From a virus (lineage: Duplodnaviria > Heunggongvirae > Uroviricota > Caudoviricetes), in IMG/VR virus record IMGVR_UViG_2740892258_000006: 16,486 nucleotides of DNA; one strand, given 5' to 3'. The notes under the pieces are model-generated. The model was not told the origin of the DNA. It worked only from the letters and a program-made list of their open reading frames with translations, and searched no databases. This document shows, one piece after another, positions 1-15,788 of this stretch. Every line of letters begins with the position of its first letter. The stretch's first letter is position 1. A program made the position numbers and the translations under genes.

Positions 1-158
1 AGGAATAAGGCAAACCCAAGCGGTGCTTTCGACTGCACCATCCCCTGCGCAGCCATTACATCCGTAATTGTTAAACCACCCGAGCCTGTCGCCGATGCGT
101 CATCGCTCAATTTTGGAGATTTTGGGGAGTAATATTTCGGTAAGGCTTCAAGGTTCAT
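1..158 (-). CDS. Q: Antitermination protein Q (lambda Q-type), N-terminal 52 codons; gene runs off the left edge
   Basis: ATG at 158-156 with GGAG 7 nt upstream; translation MNLEALPKYYSPKSPKLSDDASATGSGGLTITDVMAAQGMVQSKAPLGFALF closely parallels the lambda Q N-terminus as I recall it (MRLESVAKFHSPKSP...GTDVMAAMGMAQSQAGFGMAAF). Confidence 0.7.
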   Translation of the reverse strand, partial: MNLEALPKYYSPKSPKLSDDASATGSGGLTITDVMAAQGMVQSKAPLGFALF

Positions 159-171
159 GCTCGTTCTCCAC

Positions 172-1077
172 TTACACCAGTACGCCAATTGCCAGCGCAC
201 GATCGATAAAACGAAATATCAGCTCCAGCTGGGAGCCATACATCTCTTCAAATGCCACGGTATCCGCATGCAGCTCGTCGTGATGCTTTCTGCACAAAGG
301 CAACACAAAAAGGTCATGCGCTTTTGTACCCATTCCACCCTGTCCGTGGCCTATCAGGTGGTGGGGATCATCAGCGGGCTTTCCACAACATGCACACGAC
401 TGTGTCTTAACCCAGCGCGTGTACTTTTCATTAACCCAGCGGCGACGTTTTGGGCGTAACATAAAAGACTCCGGCGACTCCGGATCCACTTTCAGCGCCA
501 GCACCTTTTTCGCCTTATCCTGGATGATGCTGGTGGCAGGAACCGAAGGCACAAGGTCACTTTCCCGGGTGACAGACGGCACAACAGGCTTCGGTAATCT
601 CAGTGCCTTACGGGCTGCACTTTCCGGTAAGGCATCCGCCAGATCATTACGAACCAGCCACCAGCACAGTTCCGGCATTGTCACAACGTGACTGTCATCA
701 AAACCGAGATCCCGACGCACAACAGACAACACCCAGCGGGCACAGTTATCCGTTGCCATTGATTCCAGCCGTTCCGTGAACTGATCGCGAAGCAGGTTAT
801 CGCAGTGCCAGCACAGACGGATTGCGCCCGGCGCGTGTCGCATTGTGGTCATGTTCTCGCTGTGCCAGTCGGAATGAGGCCACTGACAGCCCTTTTCACG
901 AAGTAACCAGCTTTCAAGACATTCCACACCCCCCGCACGACGAATAACTGCCTCATTGCGGAACACGGCCCGAATGGCAGGATCATCCGCCAGCGGTTGT
1001 GATGCCGCCGGAACGGCACCACTGGCAAAAGATGAATAACGTTCCGGCTCAGGCTCCAGCAGGACACGCCCCTGCAT
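172..1077 (-). CDS. Phage protein with C-terminal Cys/His zinc-finger/HNH-like motif (DUF968-like, tentative)
   Basis: 301-aa ORF; C-terminal CACCGKPADDPHHLIGHG...LCRKHHDELH motif; sits between KilA-N gene and Q; start may lie further upstream (see finding on T6 run at 1119-1124). Confidence 0.6.
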   Translation of the reverse strand: MQGRVLLEPEPERYSSFASGAVPAASQPLADDPAIRAVFRNEAVIRRAGGVECLESWLLREKGCQWPHSDWHSENMTTMRHAPGAIRLCWHCDNLLRDQFTERLESMATDNCARWVLSVVRRDLGFDDSHVVTMPELCWWLVRNDLADALPESAARKALRLPKPVVPSVTRESDLVPSVPATSIIQDKAKKVLALKVDPESPESFMLRPKRRRWVNEKYTRWVKTQSCACCGKPADDPHHLIGHGQGGMGTKAHDLFVLPLCRKHHDELHADTVAFEEMYGSQLELIFRFIDRALAIGVLV

Positions 1078-1243
1078 AAACAGCCGAACATGCAGCCTTT
1101 CGCCGTCAGCGACCAGAATTTTTTGATGTTGTTAATCGCTGTACGGCTGTATCGTTCGCGCTGTTCGACGATCCCCAGCTTCGCCATCTGGTGATATGCC
1201 TGATTAGCCGTAAGGCGGATACCATACTGTTTCAGCAGTGCAC

Positions 1244-1692
1244 TCAGCGACAGTGTCGGGCGACTTGAGCCATCAGGCGCGTCAGCAGGAGCATCAATGG
1301 CATAGCGCGGTGCGGTGTGCTGGTTACCATATCGAAAGTACGGATCACCTTCAGATGGAATGACGGGCTTATCCACATTGCATAGGCATACACCAGTTCT
1401 TTGCAGACATACGTCCCCTGGTTATTTCCGCCACGAATAACGTTAACTGGCTCTATATTGACCGAGTTGCAAATCTGCAACTCGCTTATTAAACGTTCAG
1501 TTTGCTCATTGCGGAGCCAGAATGCAGGCTTATGCTTATCCAGAGAACCGGCAGCCCTGTGCAGATCGTTCAGGCTGTAACGCCCATAAGCATCACGACG
1601 AACTTCAATACCATCTGCAGATCGTTCAGGCTGTAACGCCCATAAGCATCACGACGAACTTCAATACCATCAATAACCATCAGATTATTCAT
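1244..1692 (-). pseudogene. KilA-N domain protein (antirepressor-like), frame broken by a 56-bp tandem duplication
   Basis: ATG at 1692 with GGAGAAACGAAGT upstream; MNNLMVIDGIEVRRDAYGRYSLNDLHRAAG... joins ORF 1244..1480 (…ICNSVNIEPVNVIRGGNNQGTYVCKELVYAYAMWISPSFHLKVIRTFD) only if one copy of 1560-1671 is removed. Confidence 0.55.
1560..1671. repeat. Perfect tandem duplication, 2 x 56 bp (1560-1615 = 1616-1671)
   Basis: Identical copies read directly from sequence; inside KilA-N gene. Confidence 0.95.
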
Positions 1693-1711
1693 ACTTCGTT
1701 TCTCCTCTTAA

Positions 1712-2157
1712 TCAGGCAGCTGCACCCGCCGTTTTCTCGTACTTACTGATAGTGATCTCGACCTTCCCTTCCGGGATAACCGGTCCCCACTCCACCAGCA
1801 TTCTTTTCACCTGACTGTCGTCTTCCCACACACCCGCGTGGGTCAGGGCGTCAAACAGCGCCTTGTTATAGTTGTCCAGATCGCGGATCCGGTTATCCGG
1901 AGGAAACAACACGATCTCCACTGAAGCAGGTGCCGACGTTGGTTTCGGTTATCCGGAGGAAACAACACGATCTCCACTGAAGCAGGTGCCGACGTTGGTT
2001 TTGGCAGACGACGTAACTGCTCAACTATTGCTGCACACGCCGCGCTCTGGAATTTGCGCCCCGCCGCGCTTATCAGGCTCTTACCAGCAAACGCCCCTTT
2101 GTTGGGGTGTCGCCAGTACGTGTTCACGCTGGGCGGAAACGGCAGAATCAGCTTCAT
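1712..2157 (-). pseudogene. rusA: Holliday-junction resolvase RusA, frame broken by a 56-bp tandem duplication
   Basis: ORFs 1843..2157 (MKLILPFPPSVNTYWRH...) and 1712..1921 (...DNRIRDLDNYNKALFDALTHAGVWEDDSQV...) join into about 129 aa RusA-like protein when one duplicated copy is removed; ATGA stop/start overlap with upstream gene. Confidence 0.7.
1890..2001. repeat. Perfect tandem duplication, 2 x 56 bp (1890-1945 = 1946-2001)
   Basis: Identical copies read directly from sequence; inside rusA. Confidence 0.95.
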
Positions 2158-2480
2158 ACTTTCAGGCCCCTCTCATGTAACCAGTGGGCTGCACGCAGCC
2201 TGGCGTTTTCCTTACCGGCAAGCAGTGAGCGGATAATCCCGACCGCCTCGCTGTCGTCGTCCTTCACCGCGGTATGAAGAGTGATACCCCGGGCCACGCC
2301 ACGCTTTATCGTGATGACGCCTTTTTTCTCCAGTGCTCGAAGATGCTCCACCGCTGCATTCACTGAACGGTATCCCAGCATGGTTGCCACCTCCTGATTG
2401 GTTGGCGGGAAGCCACGTTCTTTCTGATAAGAAATCAGCATATCCAGCACCTGCTGCTGGCATTGAGTTAACGTCGTCAT
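2154..2480 (-). CDS. LexA N-terminal DNA-binding-domain protein (winged helix), phage regulator
   Basis: 108 aa; MTTLTQCQQQVLDMLISYQKERGFPPTNQEVATMLGYRSVNAAVEHLRALEKKGVI parallels LexA N-terminus; ATGA overlaps with neighbours on both sides. Confidence 0.65.
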   Translation of the reverse strand: MTTLTQCQQQVLDMLISYQKERGFPPTNQEVATMLGYRSVNAAVEHLRALEKKGVITIKRGVARGITLHTAVKDDDSEAVGIIRSLLAGKENARLRAAHWLHERGLKV

Positions 2481-3130
2481 GCCGCCATCTCCCTGAGCAG
2501 TTTTTCCGCCTGCTGGCGAACCTGCGCCAGAAACGCCTCACCACATGCCTCAAGTTCATCGCGCCCGATGTAGCTGATTGCCGGTCCCTTCCAGGTCTTG
2601 TCAAAAACAGCAATAGCACCAGCGAAGAAAGCTCCTGTCGGCACCTGCTTCTCGTCTTTCGGGATAAACCAGACAGGCAGTTCAAAACCAATACGCCCGC
2701 GAATAAAAGCAATATGATCTGCATCTTCCGGCCACCACACTTCGCTGGTGGCAGCTTTGATCAGGAAAACATAGCGCCCGCCTTTATCACGCATGGCACT
2801 GGCATGCTTCATGATGTAACGCATGCCGGTGATGTATTGCCCCTCATGCTGACTGGCGCGGCTGTATGGGGGATTACCAAAGGCAGCACCTTTAAGCTCC
2901 GCAAGACGTTCTGACCAGTCATGCGCCAGCGCATTGTCTTCCGCCGTGTAATACGCGGCACATTTGGCGTTACCACCGTCGGTGAACAGATCCAGAACAA
3001 ACGGGCCAAACAGGGTGTTAATTCCCCAGAAAATGTTGTCCGGCGTGCGCCACTGATCGCCCACTTCCTTCAGTTCATGGGCTGGTTTGTTCCGCAGCTC
3101 CACCAGCGCCTGGCAATATTTATTACTCAT
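2477..3130 (-). CDS. Phage DNA N6-adenine methyltransferase (Dam-like, orphan)
   Basis: NPPY motif (AFGNPPYSRA); start taken at ATG 3130 (MSNKYCQ...) where TAATG overlaps upstream stop; ORF track extends to 3163. Confidence 0.7.
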   Translation of the reverse strand: MSNKYCQALVELRNKPAHELKEVGDQWRTPDNIFWGINTLFGPFVLDLFTDGGNAKCAAYYTAEDNALAHDWSERLAELKGAAFGNPPYSRASQHEGQYITGMRYIMKHASAMRDKGGRYVFLIKAATSEVWWPEDADHIAFIRGRIGFELPVWFIPKDEKQVPTGAFFAGAIAVFDKTWKGPAISYIGRDELEACGEAFLAQVRQQAEKLLREMAA

Positions 3131-3624
3131 TAAGCCCCCACGTAATTCCCTGACAGATACCACTCTTCACCCGATGCAGCGCGCTTGCTGCTTTTCCGTA
3201 AGCACCGCTCACGACGCGCCAGAAAATTGTTTCGTTCTGGCTGGGAGTGGCTTTCACGGAATGCCGCCATCCACACGGTTGCAGCACGACGGTATAAACC
3301 CCTGGACTCCAGTTCTTCAGCCTGGCGGGTCAGGCACAAAATCACCCGTGGATCGTTAGTGCCGACATAGAAATTGCGCACAGGTCTGGTTTCTCGAACT
3401 GGTTGTGGTTCCGGTTCCTGCGCTCTCTCAGTCAGGCGCGGGAAATGTCTGCGTGTATCTCCTTCACAACGGTGAGCCACACGCCCACTCTGACGTAACT
3501 TGCTTGCTGACTGCAGAACGCGCTGTCGTGAGTAACCTGCAAAAGCATCCGCAATGTCACCGGAAGTACACCCCGGATGGGCTTCAATGAATTTCTGAAC
3601 GTCATTTAACAGACTCATGATCAC
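3130..3624 (-). CDS. Phage regulatory protein, C-terminal half PerC/Pch-like
   Basis: LESRGLYRRAATVWMAAF resembles the PerC-family GLWRRAA..W motif; N-terminal half looks winged-helix-like; GTG 3624 or ATG 3618 start overlapping upstream TGA. Confidence 0.5.
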   Translation of the reverse strand: MIMSLLNDVQKFIEAHPGCTSGDIADAFAGYSRQRVLQSASKLRQSGRVAHRCEGDTRRHFPRLTERAQEPEPQPVRETRPVRNFYVGTNDPRVILCLTRQAEELESRGLYRRAATVWMAAFRESHSQPERNNFLARRERCLRKSSKRAASGEEWYLSGNYVGA

Positions 3625-4154
3625 CCCCTGAATCCTGCCGGGATCTGGCTGTAGTCCACGTTGTCGTAACTGGCTTTGAAGTACGGGTCCTCGCGTTTTT
3701 CGGTGTACGTACTTACGGACGGCGATAAGCGCAGGGAAAGCTCATCCCATTTTTCCCGCAGCTTCGACGGGCTGAGCACGTTACGGCACCAGAACGGATC
3801 GCGGCTGACGCGGCTGTACATCTCGCAGATTTGTTTGTGAGTACGACCATCCTGCACACACATCAGGCGAATTTCGTTTGCCCAGGCTGTCCAGTTCGGT
3901 TCTTTGGGACGAACCACCTCGCCGTCACATTCGGCAGCCTGCTCGTACAGGGCGATGATTTTTTTCCAGAGCCACTGTGCGCAGGTCAAATCATCCTGCG
4001 TTCCCCACTGGCGCTTTTTAGGGCTGAATACAACAGCATCAGGATGGCGAGTTAAAAACTCCTGTTCAGCCGTCTGCGTGTCCGGTTGCGAAGCGTCCGG
4101 ACGAGAAGTTTTTTTCAGTTGCGAGCGACGGTAGTGTGTTGTTAAACTGTTCAT
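3621..4154 (-). CDS. Hypothetical phage early protein (177 aa), function not assigned
   Basis: Intact ORF, translationally coupled (ATGA) to upstream CII-like gene; Trp/Cys-rich C-terminal region. Confidence 0.55.
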   Translation of the reverse strand: MNSLTTHYRRSQLKKTSRPDASQPDTQTAEQEFLTRHPDAVVFSPKKRQWGTQDDLTCAQWLWKKIIALYEQAAECDGEVVRPKEPNWTAWANEIRLMCVQDGRTHKQICEMYSRVSRDPFWCRNVLSPSKLREKWDELSLRLSPSVSTYTEKREDPYFKASYDNVDYSQIPAGFRG

Positions 4155-4238
4155 GCGTTAGTTTCTCCACAGTCACGACACGCCACGGCGCCCGGAGCTG
4201 CACACTCGCGGGCGTCACTACTTTCTGAAACGCAAAAG

Positions 4239-4338
4239 ATTTTGTAGACCAGTGCTGCATGCTCCTGCAGCTTCGAAATTGAGAGGTAATTTTGTAGACC
4301 AGTGCTGCATGCTCCTGCAGCTTCGAAATTGAGAGGTA
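4239..4338. repeat. Perfect tandem duplication, 2 x 50 bp (4239-4288 = 4289-4338)
   Basis: Identical copies read directly from sequence. Confidence 0.95.
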
Positions 4339-4545
4339 CAGCTCATCGTTAATTGCTGTCTTCTCATGCGGTTCCACTACACCGTCTTCAATTGCTGAAC
4401 GAATCTGTTTTGAATAACTGCCGATCTGTTCAATGACCTCCAGCAGGCGTTGGTTGATATCGGCGTTGTCCACATCCTCGACGTCAGGAAGAGACACAAA
4501 GACGCCATTTGCAGACTGCGCCACAGCATCAGCAATGAAGTGAGT

Positions 4546-4567
4546 GCCACCAGCACGCCACCAGCAC
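4546..4567. repeat. Perfect tandem duplication, 2 x 11 bp (ccaccagcacg, phase ambiguous by one base)
   Basis: Read directly from sequence; both flanking ORFs encode RAGG across it. Confidence 0.85.
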
Positions 4568-4806
4568 GCTGTAAAACCATTGCCCATCCCAGCGGGAAAA
4601 TCTGATCGCCATCTGCACGAAGGCGGTTGAATAAAGCGTTTTCTGTTACATCGAGCCAGTCAGCCGCTTCAGCGTAACCACCCGGCAACGCCGCGATCGT
4701 TTTTCTGACAGCTTTCACGTACCACTCAGGCTGTTTTTCTATTTTCCAGTGATGCTTACCCACGATTAGCCTCATCGTTCTGTGGTTAAAAATTGAAAGT
4801 GTTCTG

Positions 4807-5007
4807 CTAATCTTTCGGATAGATATCCGGTCTTAAGTCAGATTTCGTAATTGCACCTGACGTGCATTGCTCAAGTTTTTTAGCCAGCACAAAACTGGCT
4901 TTTTTATAGCCATTGAAAACCAGCCGTAAGTAGCCAGGTGTTGAGCCAACTTTTCCGGCCAACTCGCCCTGCTGTTCTTTGGTTAAAGAGTCCCAATACG
5001 CTTTCAT
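4807..5007 (-). CDS. cro: Cro-like small HTH repressor
   Basis: 66-aa ORF (MKAYWDSLTKEQQGELAGKVGSTPGYLRLVFNGYKK...) divergent from cI-like gene; GGAGG upstream; start at 5007 within longer ORF 4807..5310. Confidence 0.6.
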   Translation of the reverse strand: MKAYWDSLTKEQQGELAGKVGSTPGYLRLVFNGYKKASFVLAKKLEQCTSGAITKSDLRPDIYPKD

Positions 5008-5013
5008 ACAATG

Positions 5014-5079
5014 TGTACCTCCGGTGTACATATTACATGATTGAAATGAACCTTCAAGATACTTGTACCTTAACGGTAC
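5014..5079. promoter_or_regulatory. Immunity-region operators and divergent promoters: O1 TGTACCtccggTGTACA (5014-5030), O2 TGTACCttaacGGTACA (5063-5079); PR-like -10 TAATAT (5030-5035) and -35 CTTGAA (5053-5058) on minus strand
   Basis: Two 17-bp dyad sites sharing TGTACC half-sites between divergent cro and cI starts; 17-bp spacer between -35 and -10. Confidence 0.5.
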
Positions 5080-5097
5080 AAGGGTTTTAATTTCGTT

Positions 5098-5772
5098 ATG
5101 AAAACAATCCATGACATCCGGCGGTCTAACGCCAGAAAACTGAGAGATGGTGTTGGCGGGAATTCTTCCTTTGCCACTATGATTGATCGCGAGCCAACCC
5201 AGACCAGCAGGTTTATGGGAGATGGTGCTACTAAAAATATCGGTGACAGCATGGCACGACACATCGAAAAATGTTTCGACCTGCCTGTCGGATGGCTCGA
5301 TCAAGAACACCAGACAACGAACATCACAAAAAAACCTGATGTTTCAATCACTAATAAACAAATCACATTAGTCCCTGTCATATCATGGGTACAGGCCGGA
5401 GCATGGAAAGAAGTTGGATATTCTGAGGTTGATTTGAGCACAGCAGAAACGTATCCCTGCCCTGTACCCTGTGGGGAAATGACTTATATCTTGCGGGTGA
5501 TAGGTGATTCAATGATTGATGAGTACCGCCCGGGAGACATGATTTTTGTCGATCCTGAAGTACCTGCCTGCCACGGTGACGACGTTATTGCATTGATGCA
5601 CGATACAGGTGAAACCACCTTCAAAAGGTTGATAGAAGATGGGACACAGCGTTATCTCAAAGCGTTAAACCCAAACTGGCCTGAGCCTTACATTAAGATC
5701 AACGGTAATTGCTCTATAATTGGTACTGTGATTTTCTCAGGAAAACCAAGAAGATACAAAATCAAAGCCTAA
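5098..5772 (+). CDS. cI: CI-like prophage repressor (HTH N-terminus + S24 LexA-type peptidase C-terminus)
   Basis: C-terminal GDSM Ser motif and downstream Lys (TFKRL) of S24 autopeptidases; divergent from cro. Confidence 0.8.
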   Translation: MKTIHDIRRSNARKLRDGVGGNSSFATMIDREPTQTSRFMGDGATKNIGDSMARHIEKCFDLPVGWLDQEHQTTNITKKPDVSITNKQITLVPVISWVQAGAWKEVGYSEVDLSTAETYPCPVPCGEMTYILRVIGDSMIDEYRPGDMIFVDPEVPACHGDDVIALMHDTGETTFKRLIEDGTQRYLKALNPNWPEPYIKINGNCSIIGTVIFSGKPRRYKIKA

Positions 5773-5784
5773 TCAATGTTTATG

Positions 5785-5807
5785 AACCTGCTTCGGCAGG
5801 TTTTTTT
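5785..5807 (+). terminator. Rho-independent terminator after cI (aacctgc-ttcg-gcaggtt + T7)
   Basis: 7-bp GC-containing stem, 4-nt loop, T-run. Confidence 0.7.
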
Positions 5808-5924
5808 ATACTTGACAATGTACCTTTGAGATACATAATGTACCCAAGAGAAACAACAAACAGGCAGGACGCCCACGAAGTAGCCGCCTGGGGCATATGA
5901 AGTCCAGGATGATTCGTTAGCAAC

Positions 5925-5947
5925 AAAAAAGCGCCCTATAGGACGCT
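5925..5947 (-). terminator. Rho-independent terminator for the LprI-like gene (agcgucc-uaua-gggcgcu + U6 on minus strand)
   Basis: Hairpin with one G-U pair followed by T6, 28 nt after the stop. Confidence 0.55.
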
Positions 5948-5974
5948 TCGCTCTTTAACAATCTGGATGACTTA

Positions 5975-6487
5975 TTACTCAGATTTGAACTTTGGTTCTG
6001 GCAAAAGAGGAGGAGTTGAGTCCTCGAATCGTAGCCAGTGCTCCCAGATATCGTGGGATTGTAATTCCAGAAGACCAATTTGACGTGATGCAACTGCAGT
6101 GCCAGCTATAGTTCCTCCTGCATAATCAACCTGGACGGACTTTGACGCTTTCTCAATTAATTCTGTCCAAGCTTCACTTTCCGCGTTAAAAGAAGCAGTT
6201 AATTCCTGCAGACGCTGTGGATCATCCTTGTTGTCTTGTTTCAAACGATTCAGGGCGGCCACCGAATACTTATTCTTAACCCAACTAACCTGAGCTAACT
6301 GAACTCTCTGACAAGCGTCCATATCAGTAGTTGTTTCCTGAGGCATATCAAAGCAGGAAATAAAAAAAGTCTCAACACCATCATTTAGACTACTGCTCGG
6401 CTGGTTCAAAGCATCAGAAGCATTGGATGCTATCGGTATTATCAGTGCTACCGACAGAATCAAACGTTTAACATAAATCGCTCCCAT
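5975..6487 (-). CDS. Secreted/periplasmic protein with signal peptide, LprI-like (DUF1311) fold suspected; moron
   Basis: N-terminal MGAIYVKRLILSVALIIPIASNA signal-like sequence; Cys...Cys and Trp/Tyr spacing reminiscent of DUF1311; antisense to surrounding operon; own terminator. Confidence 0.5.
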   Translation of the reverse strand: MGAIYVKRLILSVALIIPIASNASDALNQPSSSLNDGVETFFISCFDMPQETTTDMDACQRVQLAQVSWVKNKYSVAALNRLKQDNKDDPQRLQELTASFNAESEAWTELIEKASKSVQVDYAGGTIAGTAVASRQIGLLELQSHDIWEHWLRFEDSTPPLLPEPKFKSE

Positions 6488-6968
6488 TTAATTATCCCCT
6501 CTAAGAACAGAGTCATCCAGATTAGCCGAATCCTTGTTGTTGGGGAATAACCAGGCCCACCTCGCCTGATGTGGCTAAAAGCAGGCACATAACAGCTAAG
6601 TATTTTCAACCAGAGAGAATCCTTAGCGTTGTGGTGAATGCGGCTCAGCGCACGCGGGTTAAGGTTGAGGCTGACAGTCGACCTTCTGTGGATACCCACC
6701 CGCCTGGTGTGCAACCTTCGCCAGGCACCGGGAGGCACCCGGCACCACAACTTTATGCTGTGTGTAGTCCTGGCGGTACCAGCATGCCCTTATTTCTGCT
6801 CAGGGTGTTAATGAAATTATCAGTAAGATTGGTGCCGACGCAGTGGCATTACCTGAAAATTTCCGCATTCATGATCTGGAAAAATTTAATTTAAATCGCT
6901 TCCGTTTCCGTGGTGCGCTTTCCACTGCCAGCATCGATGACTTTACCCGTTATTCTAAAGATCTTGCG

Positions 6969-7080
6969 GATGAAGGCACCCGCTGCTTTATCGATGCCGA
7001 TAATATGCGTGCCGTCAGTGTGCTGATGAAGGCACCCGCTGCTTTATCGATGCCGATAATATGCGTGCCGTCAGTGTGCT
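6969..7080. repeat. Perfect tandem duplication, 2 x 56 bp (6969-7024 = 7025-7080)
   Basis: Identical copies read directly from sequence. Confidence 0.95.
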
Positions 7081-7204
7081 TAACCTGGGTACTATTGATG
7101 AGCCTGGTCACGCAGATAACACCGCCACTCTCAAACTGAAAAAGACAGCACCGTTCTCTGCTCTGTTGTCTGTTAATGGCGAGCGTCATTCCCAGAAGTC
7201 ACTG

Positions 7205-7316
7205 GCAGAATGGATTGAAGACTGGGCCGACTACCTTGTGGGCTTTGATGCTAATGGTGAGCAGAATGGATTGAAGACTGGGCCGACTACCTTGTGGGCT
7301 TTGATGCTAATGGTGA
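7205..7316. repeat. Perfect tandem duplication, 2 x 56 bp (7205-7260 = 7261-7316)
   Basis: Identical copies read directly from sequence. Confidence 0.95.
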
Positions 7317-7980
7317 TGCCATTCAGGCAACAAAAGCGGCTGCGGCAGTCCGTAAAATCACGATTGAAGCAAACCAGACCGCTGATTTTGAAGACAATGA
7401 CTTCAGCGGCAAACGCTCCCTGATGGAGTCTGTCGAAGCGAAGACCAAAGATATTATGCCAGTGGCATTTGAATTTAAATGCGTTCCGTTTGAAGGCCTG
7501 AAAGAACGTCCGTTTAAATTACGCCTCAGCATTATCACTGGCGATCGTCCTGTACTGGTTCTGCGCATTATTCAGCTGGAAGCAGTGCAGGAAGAAATGG
7601 CTAACGAATTTCGTGATCTGCTTGTTGAGAAATTCAAGGACAGCAAAGTAGAAACCTTTATTGGTACTTTTACCGCCTGATTTCATTACTGCAAATGCCC
7701 CTGCGGGGGCATTTATGGAAACGTAATTGACTCAATAATCGCCGGATGGTGAGGGCTTTCTTTTACCAGAATTCAGCGCGGTGCAGCGCATATACGTGGA
7801 GAACAAAATGTCATTTATTAAAACTTTTTCCGGGAAGCATTTTTATTATGACAGGATAAATAAAGACGACATCGTTATTAACGATATCGCGGTTTCTCTT
7901 TCAAATATCTGTCGCTTTGCAGGACATCTTTCACATTTCTACAGCGTCGCCCAACATGCGGTGCTTTGCAGCCAACTGGT

Positions 7981-8092
7981 ACCGCAGGAATTTGCTTTTG
8001 AAGCGTTAATGCATGATGCAACAGAAGCGTATTGCCACCGCAGGAATTTGCTTTTGAAGCGTTAATGCATGATGCAACAGAAGCGTATTGCC
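7981..8092. repeat. Perfect tandem duplication, 2 x 56 bp (7981-8036 = 8037-8092)
   Basis: Identical copies read directly from sequence. Confidence 0.95.
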
Positions 8093-8222
8093 AGGACATC
8101 CCCGCGCCGCTGAAACGCCTTCTTCCTGACTATAAACGGATGGAAGAAAAAATAGACGCCGTAATCCGTGAGAAATACGGGTTACCCCCGGTTATGAGTA
8201 CGCCCGTGAAATATGCCGATCT

Positions 8223-8334
8223 CATCATGCTGGCAACCGAACGCCGCGATCTCGGGCTTGATGATGGCTCTTTCTGGCCATCATGCTGGCAACCGAACGC
8301 CGCGATCTCGGGCTTGATGATGGCTCTTTCTGGC
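8223..8334. repeat. Perfect tandem duplication, 2 x 56 bp (8223-8278 = 8279-8334)
   Basis: Identical copies read directly from sequence. Confidence 0.95.
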
Positions 8335-8552
8335 CCGTACTGGAAGGTATCCCGGCAACAGAGATGTTCAAAGTTATTCCACTGTCGCCAGGCCATACCT
8401 ATGGGATGTTTATGGAACGCTTTAAAGAGTTAACTGAGTCGTAAAAATCAGCACGTACGAATTCAAACTCTGCCATAAAAGAACATATAAGTAATTTATT
8501 AACATATAGATATAGGTTATATTACAAATTGAAAAATTATTGGAGAGCAACA

Positions 8553-9419
8553 ATGAATCAAAATCCATTCTCATTCTATGACTTTCTTGGATATTTAATA
8601 CCAGGTGGTTTTTTTATCCTATTAATGTATTTCTGTGGTTTGACATTCGATCTAGATATTGTTATTGACTTAAGTGAATTGCTCAGAGGTCAAAGTCAAA
8701 TCTTTGGCATTTTGAACTACGCTTCAATAGTTATTATATCTTATATAGCTGGACATTTTATTTCTATCACGTCAGCATTTTTTATCGAAAAATACATGAA
8801 TAAAGAATTAGGATATCCTTCCAAATATCTATTTAAAAAATTGATAGATACCTCAGAAAGCATTTGTAGCCCATCATGCGATGAGAGAAGCGCTGATAAA
8901 AAAACAAAAATAAAGAATCGCATAATCAAATGCGTATTATGTCCAATAATACTATGGGATTTTATAACACAAAAACTATGTTATTCTCAATCTCTACCAT
9001 TTCATTTAGCTAATACAACATGGTTAATGATCAAAGAAGGTTATGAGAAAAAGTTCATAACAAATCGCCAATTATTACAAGATAAAAACGGACTTGATGA
9101 TGATCTCTTCAGATTGGCATATCATTATGTTTATGAGTTTTCAAAACAACATCAAACAAAAATTCAAAACTATGTTGCATTATATGGTTTTTGCAGAAAC
9201 ATATGTTTAATCTTTATAATTTCATTTTGGGTATCAGTTCCAACCTTTATTTATCGATTATGTACTCATAGTGATTATCTTTATAGTTTACTTTCAATAA
9301 TGCTTAGCTTTTTCTTCGTCTATGTTTTCTATGTTGGTTTTGTTAAATTTTATAGAAGATATACTTTAGAAGTATTAATGGCATTTGCTGTACTTCAAAG
9401 TAACGACACTATTCGTTAA
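8553..9419 (+). CDS. AT-rich multi-pass membrane protein (4-5 predicted TM helices), moron of unknown function
   Basis: ATG 8553 with GGAGA 7 nt upstream; hydrophobic segments FLGYLIPGGFFILLMYF, IFGILNYASIVIISYIAGHFI, ICLIFIISFWVSVPTFIY, LLSIMLSFFFVYVFYVGFV; strongly AT-rich versus neighbours. Confidence 0.6.
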   Translation: MNQNPFSFYDFLGYLIPGGFFILLMYFCGLTFDLDIVIDLSELLRGQSQIFGILNYASIVIISYIAGHFISITSAFFIEKYMNKELGYPSKYLFKKLIDTSESICSPSCDERSADKKTKIKNRIIKCVLCPIILWDFITQKLCYSQSLPFHLANTTWLMIKEGYEKKFITNRQLLQDKNGLDDDLFRLAYHYVYEFSKQHQTKIQNYVALYGFCRNICLIFIISFWVSVPTFIYRLCTHSDYLYSLLSIMLSFFFVYVFYVGFVKFYRRYTLEVLMAFAVLQSNDTIR

Positions 9420-9460
9420 TAATGTTGCTCCCGTGTGCAGACGGGATAATGGAGAAACGT

Positions 9461-9667
9461 ATGCTGAACCTCGATTGTGTTCCTATCTCAACTTATTGCA
9501 AAGAAACTGGCGAAACTCCTGAAGCAATAAACAAACGTGTACAGCGCGGTGTTTGGCGTGAAGGTGTTCAGGTTTTAAAGGTTGAAGGCGTTAAGGAGAG
9601 GTGGATTGATCTTAGTGAGGTTGCAAAATGGGCCAGACAAAACTGCTCAAACTACCGCGCGGCGTAA
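9461..9667 (+). CDS. xis: Excisionase-like protein (Xis)
   Basis: Small basic protein directly upstream of and overlapping int; start at ATG 9461 (GGAG 6 nt upstream) within ORF 9422..9667. Confidence 0.6.
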   Translation: MLNLDCVPISTYCKETGETPEAINKRVQRGVWREGVQVLKVEGVKERWIDLSEVAKWARQNCSNYRAA

Positions 9668-10800
9668 CAATCAGGAAACACCACCAGGGAGAAACGATCA
9701 ATATAACTTTCACCTACAAAGGAGTTAGATGTCGTGAGCCGCTTTCCAATCTGGAAGTAACACCAAAGAACATTAAATACGCCGAGCGTACACTCGGCGA
9801 AATCCATAATAAGATCGAAAGGGGAACATTCATTTATGCAGAATATTTTCCCCGTTCTGCTCGTTTGAAAATTTTTGGTAATGCTGCTGCAAGCAAAACG
9901 GTAAAGATGTACCTGGACGAATATCTTGAAATCTGCGAAACAAGAAAACTTTCACCCTCTACGATTGGTGGCTATAAAAAATGCCGTAGTGCGTTAGCCT
10001 CACTTCACATTTGCCCTGCAAGTGAATTAACACCAGCAACCCTGAAAGCGTGGATTCAAAGCCAGAAAACAACCTTAAAAACCATTCGCAACCAGTTATC
10101 TTTCCTACGGTCAGCACTTGATGAAGCCGTGACCGATGGGGTACTTCAAATTAACCCCGTATCGTTAGTAACAGCTTCGCGCTACCAAAGTGATAAGTCA
10201 GAAGCAGAAAGCAGCTATGTGGTTGATCCGCTATCACCAGCAGAAGTTGATGCATTACTAGCAGCAGCCGGAAACAAACAATGGGAAAATCTGTTCCGGT
10301 TCGCCATACATACAGGCCTGCGTAGTTCTGAATTATGTGCCCTACGATGGCATGATATCGACTTTGTTGGAAAAACAGCCCATGTTCAGAGCGCAAGTGT
10401 TGTCGGAGTTATCAAAGGAACAAAGACAAAAGCCGGTACCCGTAAAGTTGAACTGACTGAAGAAGCAATGTTGGCGTTGATAAACCAGAAGCCATTTACA
10501 TTCATGAAGGATGCTACTGTCTTTGAAGATCCAAAGACCAATAAACCCTGGGCAAGTGCTGATGCAATTAGGAAAAAAGCATGGGTGCCAACATTGCGAA
10601 AAGCAGGTATTCGTTACAGAAACCCATATCAAACCAGGCATACATTCGCCACCAGCCATATCAGCCGGGGAGCAAACCTGTTTTGGCTTGCGGCTCAAAT
10701 GGGCCATAAAGGGCCTGAAATGTTATTCAGGCACTATGGACAATACTTGAAAGAGTATGATGGGAGGGCAAGTATCAAGGATAAAAAGGCTTTATTTTAA
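9628..10800 (+). CDS. int: Tyrosine site-specific integrase (lambda-type with N-terminal arm-binding domain)
   Basis: 390 aa; catalytic-domain signatures HTGLRSSELCALRW (Arg), RHTFATSH (His-x-x-Arg), GHKGPEMLFRHYGQY (His...Tyr). Confidence 0.9.
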   Translation: MGQTKLLKLPRGVTIRKHHQGETINITFTYKGVRCREPLSNLEVTPKNIKYAERTLGEIHNKIERGTFIYAEYFPRSARLKIFGNAAASKTVKMYLDEYLEICETRKLSPSTIGGYKKCRSALASLHICPASELTPATLKAWIQSQKTTLKTIRNQLSFLRSALDEAVTDGVLQINPVSLVTASRYQSDKSEAESSYVVDPLSPAEVDALLAAAGNKQWENLFRFAIHTGLRSSELCALRWHDIDFVGKTAHVQSASVVGVIKGTKTKAGTRKVELTEEAMLALINQKPFTFMKDATVFEDPKTNKPWASADAIRKKAWVPTLRKAGIRYRNPYQTRHTFATSHISRGANLFWLAAQMGHKGPEMLFRHYGQYLKEYDGRASIKDKKALF

Positions 10801-11409
10801 GTCATTATGCCAATCGTCTACTGTTTGAAACCAAATTTTTAACCTTTGCATAAAGGTACGATCCTTTTTGGGAGGGTGGTACCTTTGAAAAGAAGTATGT
10901 AACGCTTCGATAACTCCCATACAAGCATCAATTACTTCTTGTGCTTTAACCGGGCGATCGGCATCTGAAAGCTTGTGAGCGACCTCACAATCCAGAGTTG
11001 CTTTCTCTAGTACAGATGAGAACACCTCGTCAGGTATATACAGTCCTCTGCTTTCCAAAATGCAAATCAGTTTGGAAACTTGTTGAGCTTTAGCCAAGAT
11101 AGTTAACAAGTATGAAACAGAAGCCTTTGTTCTATCCTTTTGCAACCTTAACAATCGATGCTTTGATGCTCTAATTTTAGGTTGAGTTGTCTGACTGAGC
11201 CAATAGTTAGAAGAAATATCAGAAATTTCAATAACTAACTTTGAAATAGCATCAATAATTGATTTCGATTCAGAACGTGTCGCCAGTTTTACAGAATTAT
11301 TGTACGCAACTCGCCATCCAATGAAAACTAAGCAGACGCTAACTACTGTGATACACCACGAATACTGTCCTATTTGTGCTACTAATGACATTGGTTCCGT
11401 ACTGATCAA
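10792..11409 (-). CDS. Cargo operon gene C: membrane-anchored protein (one N-terminal TM helix, helical soluble domain), unknown function
   Basis: TTG start at 11409 with AAGAGG overlapping upstream stop (alternative ATG 11391); TM segment YSWCITVVSVCLVFIGWRVAY; 3' end overlaps int by 9 nt. Confidence 0.6.
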   Translation of the reverse strand: MISTEPMSLVAQIGQYSWCITVVSVCLVFIGWRVAYNNSVKLATRSESKSIIDAISKLVIEISDISSNYWLSQTTQPKIRASKHRLLRLQKDRTKASVSYLLTILAKAQQVSKLICILESRGLYIPDEVFSSVLEKATLDCEVAHKLSDADRPVKAQEVIDACMGVIEALHTSFQRYHPPKKDRTFMQRLKIWFQTVDDWHNDLK

Positions 11410-11419
11410 CTATCGCCTC

Positions 11420-11746
11420 TTATACTCTTTCTGGTTGTGCTAAATCAATAAATTTATCAATCTGTTCTTTGTAGAACGGAACATCACTTTTTATAATCAA
11501 ACGTGCTTTAACGTTGGCTTTAGGTATCCCTTCCTTACGGATGAGACCTCCAAACGCCTCTTCTAAGAAAGAGGAACCAACACCCAGTGCTATACCGCGA
11601 AAATCAACCACAATCTCCTGTTCAGTACCCTTCAGCGCAGGCACCAAAAACTCTCTACGAAATCTTTCCGCACTGTGTGGGCTATCCGTTGTGTAACGTC
11701 CGAAAGGTGTTCTGGAGAACTCCTTCGCTATGACGATATTTCTCAT
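11420..11746 (-). CDS. Cargo operon gene B: small STAS-like protein (DUF4325-like, tentative)
   Basis: 108 aa; AGGAG 8 nt upstream of ATG 11746; motif EIVVDFRGIALGVGSSFLEEAFGGLI resembles STAS-like DUF4325 as I recall it; 4-nt gap to gene A. Confidence 0.6.
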   Translation of the reverse strand: MRNIVIAKEFSRTPFGRYTTDSPHSAERFRREFLVPALKGTEQEIVVDFRGIALGVGSSFLEEAFGGLIRKEGIPKANVKARLIIKSDVPFYKEQIDKFIDLAQPERV

Positions 11747-11750
11747 AAAA

Positions 11751-12662
11751 TCATCTCCTGGGAACCAGCGACCATTGTAGTAAAGTACCCGGTATGTACT
11801 CAGCTAGCTTCTCACATCGAGGACTACTGTCATTAGAATTATAGCTATAACGAGCCCTTCCTGTTAGTATCAGAAGTGTCTCATTATCCTCACAACCTGC
11901 CCCAATAGGTCTCTTGATATCTTCAGAGCCATTTCCCCGTCCGGAACCAACAAAGCGGGATTCCCCTACTAACATAGCTCTTTCCACAGAAGATACTTCG
12001 TTTTGAATGCTATGACCATCACCATTAGGCACGAAACTTCTATAAATCCCCAATCCAAGGTCACAAACGATAAAAACGACTTTATTTTCATCACGATTGA
12101 ACCAAGCGCACTGCCACCATCGTTTACCTTTGAGAAGCTGAATATCTGACTCGAACCCCTCATCTTCATACGCATGATGAGAAACATTGAGCAAAGCTTC
12201 ACTAATCGCTGTCAGCAGTAAGCCTAACTGTTCATTATTAAGCAGAGCACTTTTCTGCAGCATGAGTACTGTTTCAACAATATGCTCGTAAGGTTCGACA
12301 GCTGACTGAAAGTATCGTTCCTCCCTCGTAAGTGCATTCAGTTTCTCTTCTGTGCCAGCAAGCAAAGCACGAGCAAGTCCAGTACCAACGATCCATCTAT
12401 GCCCAGATGGGTTATCATCCTTTTTAGGCCATTTAAAACGTATAAAATTAGGGTCCCGGGTTAAAAATTGAGCTCTATTTACTATGGCAAAGAACAGTAC
12501 CGATGCCGCAGCTGAGGCAAATTTTACCTTGGACAAATCAACTATAACTCGACCTTTATTTTTTACTCCAATCGATTCAATCGAGTTGATGAAGTTCAAT
12601 GTCCCAGCCCTAGAATCATCTGAGTAAATGCAAAATTTGCTTGGGGGTACCAGTATGGTCAT
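11751..12662 (-). CDS. Cargo operon gene A: GHKL (histidine-kinase-like) ATPase with unassigned N-terminal domain
   Basis: 303 aa; Bergerat-fold motifs in the C-terminal half: N-box EALLNVSHHA, G1 CDLGLGI, G2 GSGRGNG. Confidence 0.65.
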   Translation of the reverse strand: MTILVPPSKFCIYSDDSRAGTLNFINSIESIGVKNKGRVIVDLSKVKFASAAASVLFFAIVNRAQFLTRDPNFIRFKWPKKDDNPSGHRWIVGTGLARALLAGTEEKLNALTREERYFQSAVEPYEHIVETVLMLQKSALLNNEQLGLLLTAISEALLNVSHHAYEDEGFESDIQLLKGKRWWQCAWFNRDENKVVFIVCDLGLGIYRSFVPNGDGHSIQNEVSSVERAMLVGESRFVGSGRGNGSEDIKRPIGAGCEDNETLLILTGRARYSYNSNDSSPRCEKLAEYIPGTLLQWSLVPRR

Positions 12663-12813
12663 AGCGATGTCATTCTTATACGATGGATTTATAGATTATC
12701 TACTATTCATAGTTGGTTATGAAGACTGGGATATAACAGTAAAAGATACGTGTAAGATCCGCAAGATAGTTAATGTCGAAAAAATCATTAATTACATCAA
12801 GTTAGTGATATTT

Positions 12814-12851
12814 GGACTCGGGTTCAACTCCCGCCAGCCAATCATGATTGG
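12814..12851 (+). other. Candidate att remnant: 25-nt match to the 3' end of tmRNA/ssrA (GGACtCGGGTTCAACTCCCGCCAGC) followed by perfect palindrome CCAATCATGATTGG (12838-12851)
   Basis: Recalled E. coli ssrA 3' end is ...GGACGCGGGTTCAACTCCCGCCAGCTCCACCA; one mismatch here and divergence after CAGC. Confidence 0.55.
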
Positions 12852-12970
12852 ACGGTGTAAGGACTACACCAACAAAAACAGGAAGTTATAAGTCTCAGCA
12901 GGACACCGACCAGACGGTGAGGAGACAAAAAAGGATACGCAACGGAGTCGCGACTCCCTATGACATTAAA

Positions 12971-12993
12971 GCCCGCTGATGCGGGCTTTTTTA
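12971..12993 (+). terminator. Rho-independent terminator (gcccgc-tgat-gcgggc + T6)
   Basis: Perfect 6-bp GC stem, 4-nt loop, T-run; lies about 130 bp downstream of the ssrA-like fragment. Confidence 0.65.
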
Positions 12994-13299
12994 TTGGTCC
13001 TGACCCGCCCTGAATAGAATTCATCCAATTACAGTCCAGACATATACAGTATCCCTCAGCTCAGTATCAGCTTCTCGACAAATGGTCACTGTTATTTACC
13101 CGTTGCCAGAAAGAGAATAATTTGCCCCCATAGCCAGCCTTCCCGGAATCTGTATATTCATTAATATTGTTATCGATTCCATCAAGTAACATAGGTTGGA
13201 TGCGATTGATCTTACTCACATTAGTCGACACGGAACTCAGTAAGTTGAACTCTGAAAAAGCAGTTTAAATAGCATTTAAACAAATGCCACCAGTTCGAA

Positions 13300-14500
<1,201 letters not shown>

Positions 14501-14519
14501 GCGCAAAGGAATTGAGCGG

Positions 14520-15788
14520 ATGTATGATTTTTTGATTATTGGCGGCGGCATCATCGGCATGTCGACCGCCATGCAACTAATTGATGTTTATCCGGATGCC
14601 CGCATAGCGTTGCTGGAAAAAGAGCCCGGCCCGGCCTGTCACCAGACGGGCCACAACAGTGGCGTAATCCATGCCGGGGTCTATTACACGCCCGGCAGCC
14701 TGAAGGCGCAGTTTTGCCTGGCAGGAAACCGCGCCACCAAAGCCTTTTGCGATCAAAACGGTATTCGCTACGACAACTGCGGCAAGATGCTGGTCGCCAC
14801 GTCTGAACTCGAAATGGAACGGATGCGCGCCTTATGGGAACGCACGGCGGCGAACGGAATCGATCGCGAGTGGTTAAACGCCGAAGAGCTGCGCGAGCGC
14901 GAACCAAATATCACCGGGCTGGGCGGTATTTTTGTGCCGTCCAGCGGCATTGTCAGCTACCGCGAAGTGACGGCGGCAATGGCAAAAATTTTTCAGGCCA
15001 GAGGCGGTGAGATTATCTATAACGCCGAAGTCAGCGCCCTCAGTGAGCATAAAAACGGCGTGGTGATATGTACCCGTCAGGGCGGTGAATATGAAGCATC
15101 GACGCTGATTAGCTGTTCCGGGCTGATGGCTGACCGGCTGGTGAAAATGCTCGGCCTCGAACCGGGCTTTATTATCTGCCCGTTCCGCGGCGAGTATTTC
15201 CGCCTTGCGCCGGAGCATAACCAGATTGTTAACCACCTGATTTACCCCATTCCCGACCCGGCAATGCCGTTTTTGGGCGTGCATCTCACCCGCATGATCG
15301 ACGGCAGTGTGACCGTCGGGCCAAACGCGGTGCTGGCTTTCAAACGCGAAGGCTATCGTAAGCGCGACTTCTCATTTAGCGACACGCTGGAAATTTTGGG
15401 CTCGTCGGGGATTCGCCGGGTGCTGCAAAACCATCTACGCTCAGGACTGGGCGAGATGAAAAACTCGCTGTGCAAAAGCGGCTATCTGCGGCTGGTGCAA
15501 AAGTATTGTCCCCGGCTTTCGTTAAGCGATCTCCAGCCCTGGCCCGCCGGTGTGCGGGCGCAGGCGGTATCGCCGGACGGCAAGCTGATTGACGATTTTC
15601 TGTTTGTCACCACCCCGCGCACGATCCACACCTGTAATGCGCCCTCCCCGGCAGCGACATCAGCAATTCCTATTGGTGCGCATATTGTCAGCAAGGTACA
15701 AACGCTGTTGGCAAGCCAGAGTAACCCCGGACGCACGCTGCGAGCGGCACGTAGTGTGGATGCCTTACACGCCGCATTTAATCAATAA
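14520..15788 (+). CDS. lhgO: L-2-hydroxyglutarate dehydrogenase/oxidase LhgO (FAD-dependent)
   Basis: 422 aa from ATG 14520 (AAGGA upstream); FAD-binding LIIGGGIIG motif; ORF track extends upstream to 14454 overlapping csiD. Confidence 0.9.
   Translation: MYDFLIIGGGIIGMSTAMQLIDVYPDARIALLEKEPGPACHQTGHNSGVIHAGVYYTPGSLKAQFCLAGNRATKAFCDQNGIRYDNCGKMLVATSELEMERMRALWERTAANGIDREWLNAEELREREPNITGLGGIFVPSSGIVSYREVTAAMAKIFQARGGEIIYNAEVSALSEHKNGVVICTRQGGEYEASTLISCSGLMADRLVKMLGLEPGFIICPFRGEYFRLAPEHNQIVNHLIYPIPDPAMPFLGVHLTRMIDGSVTVGPNAVLAFKREGYRKRDFSFSDTLEILGSSGIRRVLQNHLRSGLGEMKNSLCKSGYLRLVQKYCPRLSLSDLQPWPAGVRAQAVSPDGKLIDDFLFVTTPRTIHTCNAPSPAATSAIPIGAHIVSKVQTLLASQSNPGRTLRAARSVDALHAAFNQ

Follow-up and report, generated by a model that had tools for sequence, protein, structure and literature searches.

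An 11-bp tandem repeat in the ymfL gene of a draft Escherichia coli prophage contig: very probably an untrimmed contig overlap at k = 57

The phage 186 CII/CP76 family (PF06892), together with YmfL of the e14 prophage, is the closest described relative of the protein encoded at the locus reported here. Like the regulators of the 186 CII type, this ymfL lies after a cro-like gene and opposite a gene for a cI-like S24 repressor; a CII-like activity is predicted for it from sequence only. Once two tandem repeats, of 11 and 50 bp, are taken out of the gene, its 187-aa ORF scores above the curated cutoff of the family. As written in the contig, and unlike the members of PF06892, the ORF is cut after residue 73 and has no family match.

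Cryptic prophage decay is common, and the 11-bp repeat resembles a slippage-type frameshift pseudogene in its exact head-to-tail copy, its 2-bp microhomology, and its frameshift. It differs from slippage-type duplications in that its breakpoints are set by k-mer geometry relative to a paralogue and in that it belongs to a set of 12 junctions governed by a single rule. A further comparison is with the untrimmed k−1 overlaps left by node-centric assemblers of the Velvet/ABySS type when a scaffolding or gap-closing step comes next. In Velvet output, contigs that neighbor each other in the graph overlap by k−1, nodes shorter than ~2k are not written out, and scaffolders normally merge detected overlaps or insert Ns. 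In the contig studied here, neighboring pieces overlap by a fixed 56 nt, and breaks occur where an exact repeat shared by two paralogous prophages begins or ends. Nodes of length L shorter than 2(k−1) appear as 'duplications' of 2(k−1)−L, and longer omitted ones as 'deletions' of L−2(k−1). Unlike usual scaffolder output, the contig has neither merged overlaps nor Ns at its joins.

The ymfL gene and the 11-bp tract

The window, by which we mean the whole 16,486-bp stretch of DNA that was analyzed, is the complete draft whole-genome shotgun contig CVOH01000132.1 of assembly GCA_001245225.1; the 14,763 bases retrieved from that contig are identical to window positions 1–14763. The contig was not among the RefSeq complete genomes searched. 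The early operon reads ymfK (S24 repressor, plus strand), ymfT (YdaS/Cro-like, minus strand), and ymfL (minus strand), and the features that bear on the repeat are as follows.

4151–4775, minus strand: ymfL (CII-like, PF06892) as written, 625 nt with its stop codon at 4151–4153; 564 nt and 187 aa with the repeats removed
4377–4775, minus strand: 132-aa ORF open in the contig, made of 73 authentic YmfL residues and 59 out-of-frame residues
4546–4569: exact period-11 tandem tract containing the 11-bp overlap (IHE3034 copy A, L014 5971–5981), join at 4557/4558
4807–5007, minus strand: Cro-like YdaS-family HTH gene (ymfT), operon partner of ymfL and directly upstream of it
5098–5772, plus strand: divergent cI-like repressor gene (ymfK) of the LexA/S24 peptidase family

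The first-pass annotation of this DNA had called the broken gene CII-like, which is a fair label. With both repeats removed, the restored ORF matches PF06892 (Phage_CP76) over residues 21–154 (E = 1.4e-13, 51.4 bits against a gathering cutoff of 26), and RefSeq names the matching UTI89 gene ymfL. Over the ymfL stretch, the window and UTI89 ymfL show zero base differences, and the gene is annotated intact in UTI89 and in both prophage copies of strain IHE3034. The ORF in the window starts at an ATG at 4775, while the RefSeq start is a GTG at 4763. The 11-bp repeat shifts the frame of this minus-strand gene after residue 73, and past it the upstream ymfL frame stays open, now out of register, as far as a stop at 4377. 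No Pfam match was obtained for the resulting 132-aa ORF of the contig.

The 11-bp repeat is present as an exact tract at 4546–4569 (TRF, period 11, 2.2 copies, 100% matches) that reads GCCACCAGCAC GCCACCAGCAC GC, in the wider context GTGAGT GCCACCAGCAC GCCACCAGCAC GC TGTAAAACC. The borders of the repeat share a 2-bp GC microhomology, giving 13 consecutive matches at lag 11. Its earlier placement at 4546–4567 holds for the phase gccaccagcac but is off by one base for the phase ccaccagcacg with which it was quoted, whose copies lie at 4547–4557 and 4558–4568. As had been observed, both frames encode RAGG here, the upstream frame as ...VLQRAGG through copy 1 and the downstream frame as RAGGTHFIADAV through copy 2. 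The length argument also stands: the stretch bounded by the ATG at 4775 and the TGA at 4151–4153 measures 625 nt, and subtracting 11 and 50 leaves 564 nt, or 187 aa and a stop. The two repeats jointly explain the whole frame break, and removing either one alone fails to restore the ORF. Block shuffles of the window give a chance expectation of 0.03 such tracts per shuffle, against eight observed.

Other repeats were seen near the repressor gene. An operator-like inverted repeat, CTTGTACC-N5-GGTACAAG, lies at 5062–5082, between the cro-like and cI-like genes, which are 90 bp apart, and an imperfect 20-bp tandem (78% identity) lies at 5817–5855, just past the repressor gene.

A comparison with homologous genes had been proposed as a check, with a natural RAGG-RAGG at this site as the outcome that would speak against the reading; we found none. 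A 141-bp query across the repeat was searched against 5,426 complete E. coli genomes, of which 2,526 match and 2,363 cover most of the query. The best matches among these 2,363 site-covering genomes span 130 bp against the 141-bp query, and the 11-bp repeat was not found among the best matches of the 2,526 genomes (92.2% identity, one 11-base gap). Exact-pattern scans with the 24-nt tract gave zero matches in IMG/VR, three in GTDB species representatives, and five in JGI metagenomes; all eight matches are unrelated (68–75% G+C), and no ymfL-linked 11-bp repeat was found by these scans in any of the three collections. The frameshifted product is not on record in its 132-aa ATG-start form. In its 128-aa GTG-start form it is on record on exactly one contig, CVOH01000132.1 (GCA_001245225.1).

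Twelve junctions and a second prophage copy

Apart from its junctions, the window is collinear with, and about 99.9% identical to, UTI89, IHE3034, and other close relatives. The best full-length alignments comprise 12 pieces and use 17,815 bp of reference for the 16,486 bp of window. Relative to the UTI89/IHE3034 prophage there are 12 junctions, namely six 56-bp, one 50-bp, and one 11-bp tandem repeats and four deletions, the last located by piecewise alignment to UTI89 (L001). All 12 fall in the prophage part of the window, between 1083 and 8335, and none in the 8.2 kb to the right. The eight repeats are exact two-copy tandems (TRF) and are arranged as four pairs. Among the best full-length matches no complete genome has any such junction, and all of them need 12 alignment pieces.

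The prophage of the window, which adjoins glaH/lhgO/gabD, is referred to as copy A, with L014 denoting copy A of IHE3034. Segment 7025–7260 of the window matches another locus slightly better than its own, namely yfdQ near 561 kb in IHE3034, APEC O18, PMV-1, and MS20655. This locus belongs to a second prophage, at tRNA-Arg (argU), that is 96–97% identical to the window prophage and is referred to as copy B; its sequence (L012) comes from the related strain IHE3034 and not from the isolate itself. The argU prophage has the same gene order as the window (antiterminator, DUF968, KilA-N, RusA, LexA-like, PerC, HTH, DUF4222, ymfL), followed farther along by yfdP, yfdQ, yfdR, and integrase. A second near-identical copy is thus present in a close relative, and copy-B alleles appear in the window itself. 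Specifically, ten window bases differ from UTI89 or from IHE3034 copy A, and seven of the ten are copy-B alleles (868, 869, 7177, 7187, 7189, 8103, and 8109). At two others, 627 and 2538, the window has the UTI89 base where IHE3034 has another; the remaining difference, 14264, is outside the prophage. The seven copy-B alleles lie inside the prophage, and the contig is therefore a local chimera of both copies. Such a pattern of alleles is what the merging of near-identical repeat branches produces.

A full argU prophage is carried by IHE3034, APEC O18, PMV-1, and MS20655, whereas UTI89 has a remnant only; the isolate therefore resembles the IHE3034/APEC O18/PMV-1/MS20655 group, and we infer that it carries copy B. 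Two candidate sites for an intact paralogue in UTI89 were rejected. The region near icd (1.20–1.30 Mb) is a lambda-like prophage without ymfL, and UTI89 argU (L013, 569–571 kb) holds only an integrase remnant, the intact paralogue being in IHE3034.

With shared runs defined as the parts of copy A whose 57-mers are also present in copy B, the junctions other than the 11-bp repeat are listed here from left to right.

1083–1084: abutted ends; 185 bp missing, equal to the 297-bp shared region L014 1528–1824 minus 112
1313–1314: abutted ends; 145 bp missing, equal to the 257-bp shared run L014 1943–2199 minus 112
1560–1671 and 1890–2001 (1560–2001 overall): pair of exact 56-bp tandem repeats flanking a 330-bp contig at 1616–1945 (L014 2390–2719) that ends on A/B-shared runs
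4115–4116: abutted ends; 756 bp missing, equal to the 868-bp shared/bubble region L014 4778–5645 minus 112
4239–4338: 50-bp exact tandem repeat, 50 = 2 × 56 − 62; 62-bp shared run L014 5707–5768, its unitig missing; join at 4288/4289
6782–6783: abutted ends; 640 bp missing (L014 8196–8835), both ends on k = 57 unitig boundaries
6969–7080 and 7205–7316 (6969–7316 overall): pair of 56-bp tandem repeats flanking a 236-bp collapsed-repeat contig at 7025–7260, with copy-B alleles at 7177, 7187, and 7189
7981–8093 and 8223–8335 (7981–8335 overall): pair of 56-bp tandem repeats flanking a 242-bp collapsed-repeat contig, with copy-B alleles at 8103 and 8109

The three shared contigs that were kept (L001/L014 2390–2719, 9022–9257, and 9923–10164) have shared runs at both ends and copy-A-specific neighbors on either side. 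The four deletions are explained as omitted shared contigs minus 112 bp.

The junctions also alter the genes around them. The six 56-bp repeats break the KilA-N, rusA, yfdQ, and yfdR genes. The DUF4222 gene and yfdP are lost entirely to the four deletions, which show at most 1 bp of microhomology; the DUF968, KilA-N, and HTH-domain genes lose parts, as does yfdQ at its 5′ end. At the 4115/4116 join, just downstream of ymfL, the DUF4222 gene is lost and the HTH-domain gene lacks its 5′ half. A 177-aa ORF on the minus strand (3621–4154), whose ATG overlaps the ymfL stop codon (ATGA), is the in-frame fusion created by this join, with 13 codons from the ymfL 3′ region followed by the HTH-domain gene from codon 150. 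It has no Pfam match and is an artifact ORF, not a gene.

Three cargo genes lie on the minus strand at 10792–12662, between the prophage integrase (9628–10800) and glaH. Their products are 303, 108, and 205 aa long: the first resembles HATPase_c_2 weakly (22.9 bits, under the cutoff), the second is a STAS-like DUF4325 protein, and the third matches nothing; PADLOC gave no matches on the three genes. They may form an uncharacterized partner-switching or accessory module of the prophage.

Junction geometry at k = 57

Each piece of the contig ends at the start of a shared run + 55, and the next piece starts at the end of the run − 55, giving an overlap with the run of 56 nt on each side. In ymfL, copies A and B share an exact 101-bp run (L001/L014 5926–6026). 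The left piece runs up to 5981 (window 4557) and the right piece from 5971 (window 4558) onward, so that the 11-nt overlap 5971–5981 is written twice, with 11 = 2 × 56 − 101. In the same way, the 62-bp shared run at 5707–5768, whose node is omitted, gives the 50-bp repeat (112 − 62). The elements of the ymfL join are listed below.

4289–4557: 269-bp copy-A-only unitig (L014 5713–5981); its last 56 nt (4502–4557) are the first 56 nt of the 101-bp shared run
4501: distinguishing base at the left bound of the 101-bp run, G in A and T in B; the contig ends exactly 56 nt after it
4558–6782: next contig (L014 5971–8195); its first 56 nt (4558–4613) are the last 56 nt of the 101-bp shared run
4614: distinguishing base at the right bound of the 101-bp run, T in A and G in B; the next contig starts exactly 56 nt before it

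For a formal test, we built the k-mer graph of IHE3034 copy A (L014) plus copy B (L012) and scored a junction when its left end and its right start both fell on unitig boundaries, with any joint shift limited to the microhomology. Both sides fell on unitig boundaries for all 12 junctions at k = 57 and for none at the other k values tried (45 to 69), while random placement of the junctions reached a maximum of 3 of 12 in 100,000 trials. Applied to IHE3034 copy A, the 12 junction operations rebuild the 16,486-bp window with 10 base differences, one of which, at 7024, vanishes when that junction is parsed in the alternative way. At its left, the contig itself ends on a k = 57 unitig boundary between the prophage copies, and at its right it ends within gabD. 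The window also contains many A/B unitig boundaries without a junction; presumably read threading or bubble merging, a plausible route, resolved these. The 11-bp repeat is the overlap of two blocks whose ends follow 57-mer sharing with a paralogous prophage, and the same holds for all 12 junctions.

Origin of the repeat and competing explanations

Since both breakpoints lie 56 nt from the A/B-distinguishing bases and the k = 57 rule accounts for the 12 differences, we have high confidence that the 11-bp repeat is an assembly artifact, in which two contig ends overlapping by 11 bases were abutted. The isolate would carry two prophages, A and B, that are 96–97% identical. A de Bruijn assembler run at k = 57 would break wherever the copies share an exact stretch that it is unable to resolve, with the copy-specific contig ending 56 nt (k−1) into the shared stretch and the next contig starting 56 nt before the stretch ends. 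With the node for the 101-bp ymfL stretch absent and the flanking contigs placed end to end, 2 × 56 − 101 = 11 nt would be doubled, and the same mechanism at the 62-bp shared stretch would yield the 50-bp repeat. The six 56-bp repeats would arise where a collapsed shared contig was retained between its neighbors, and the four 'deletions' of L−112 where longer shared contigs were left out.

The joins probably date from scaffolding or gap closing, in which contig ends would have been abutted untrimmed. That Velvet omits nodes shorter than ~2k would agree with the absence of the 62-bp and 101-bp nodes. In a large contemporary E. coli bacteremia collection that includes ST95, 100-bp reads were assembled with Velvet and then processed with SSPACE and GapFiller (PMC5538559). 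That paper shows only the use of such pipelines, from which we infer a possible link to this contig.

The first-pass annotation had implied a duplication mutation of the gene, and taken alone the repeat does look like an ordinary slippage product: the tract is exact, it is flanked by 2-bp microhomology between GC dinucleotides, and truncation after residue 73 abolishes the PF06892 match, as expected if an 11-bp slippage duplication had, together with the 50-bp duplication, inactivated ymfL in a decaying prophage. This implication does not survive the geometry of the junctions. There is no mutational reason for both breakpoints to measure exactly 56 nt from the nearest A/B-distinguishing base (4501 and 4614), and one rule fits all 12 junctions at k = 57 only. 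Moreover, six other repeats are all 56 bp long, and six independent duplications of one length cannot be a natural mutational spectrum. The 11-bp repeat is in none of the best matches among the 2,526 genomes that have the homologous stretch, and the source is a short-read-style draft contig. We regard genuine slippage as very improbable, and it is just as hard to believe that the 11-bp and 50-bp repeats are real, ymfL is a fresh pseudogene, and the coincidence at k = 57 is accidental. Real recombination between the prophage copies, by unequal exchange or patchy gene conversion, could in principle leave mosaic patches with duplicated borders; it would account for the copy-B alleles inside the short segments between repeat pairs, and the copies are similar enough for homologous recombination. 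However, homologous exchange within identical stretches leaves no duplication, and no complete genome among the best full-length matches has such a junction. Its probability appears lower still, with repeat lengths that obey 2 × 56 − L and retained overlaps that are always 56 nt, a fixed k-mer signature. The least credible proposal is that the repeat is a recoding site and that YmfL is made by programmed ribosomal frameshifting across the RAGG codons. Its sole support is that both frames read RAGG across the repeat, but a second, uncompensated 50-bp frame break lies downstream, the total of 61 nt is not a multiple of three, and homologues, including both IHE3034 copies, encode the protein in one frame without the repeat. 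The three competing explanations combined retain only a sliver of the probability.

Several simpler ideas were also tried and set aside. Duplication of FASTA lines was rejected on the spacings of the repeats, which are not multiples of 56. A simple SNP-bubble model with UTI89 alone placed the mismatches at distances other than 56 nt from the segment ends, a difficulty that was resolved once copy B was found. A transposon footprint, an engineered scar, and a simulated variant were discarded as well, as none predicts breakpoints tied to paralogue mismatches at one k.

The abutted-overlap reading has practical consequences. Because of the 12 joins, at least seven prophage genes (DUF968, KilA-N, rusA, HTH-domain, ymfL, yfdQ, and yfdR) seem to carry frameshifting duplications and deletions, and repeat lengths of 2(k−1)−L, a fixed 56-bp overlap, and breakpoints at a constant distance from paralogue mismatches offer a quick flag for other draft assemblies. 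The 11-bp 'duplication' is almost certainly not a real genomic feature and is without biological significance, and ymfL is most likely intact in the real genome of the isolate. Pseudogene calls, pan-genome counts, and inferences of 'prophage decay' drawn from this contig would be wrong.
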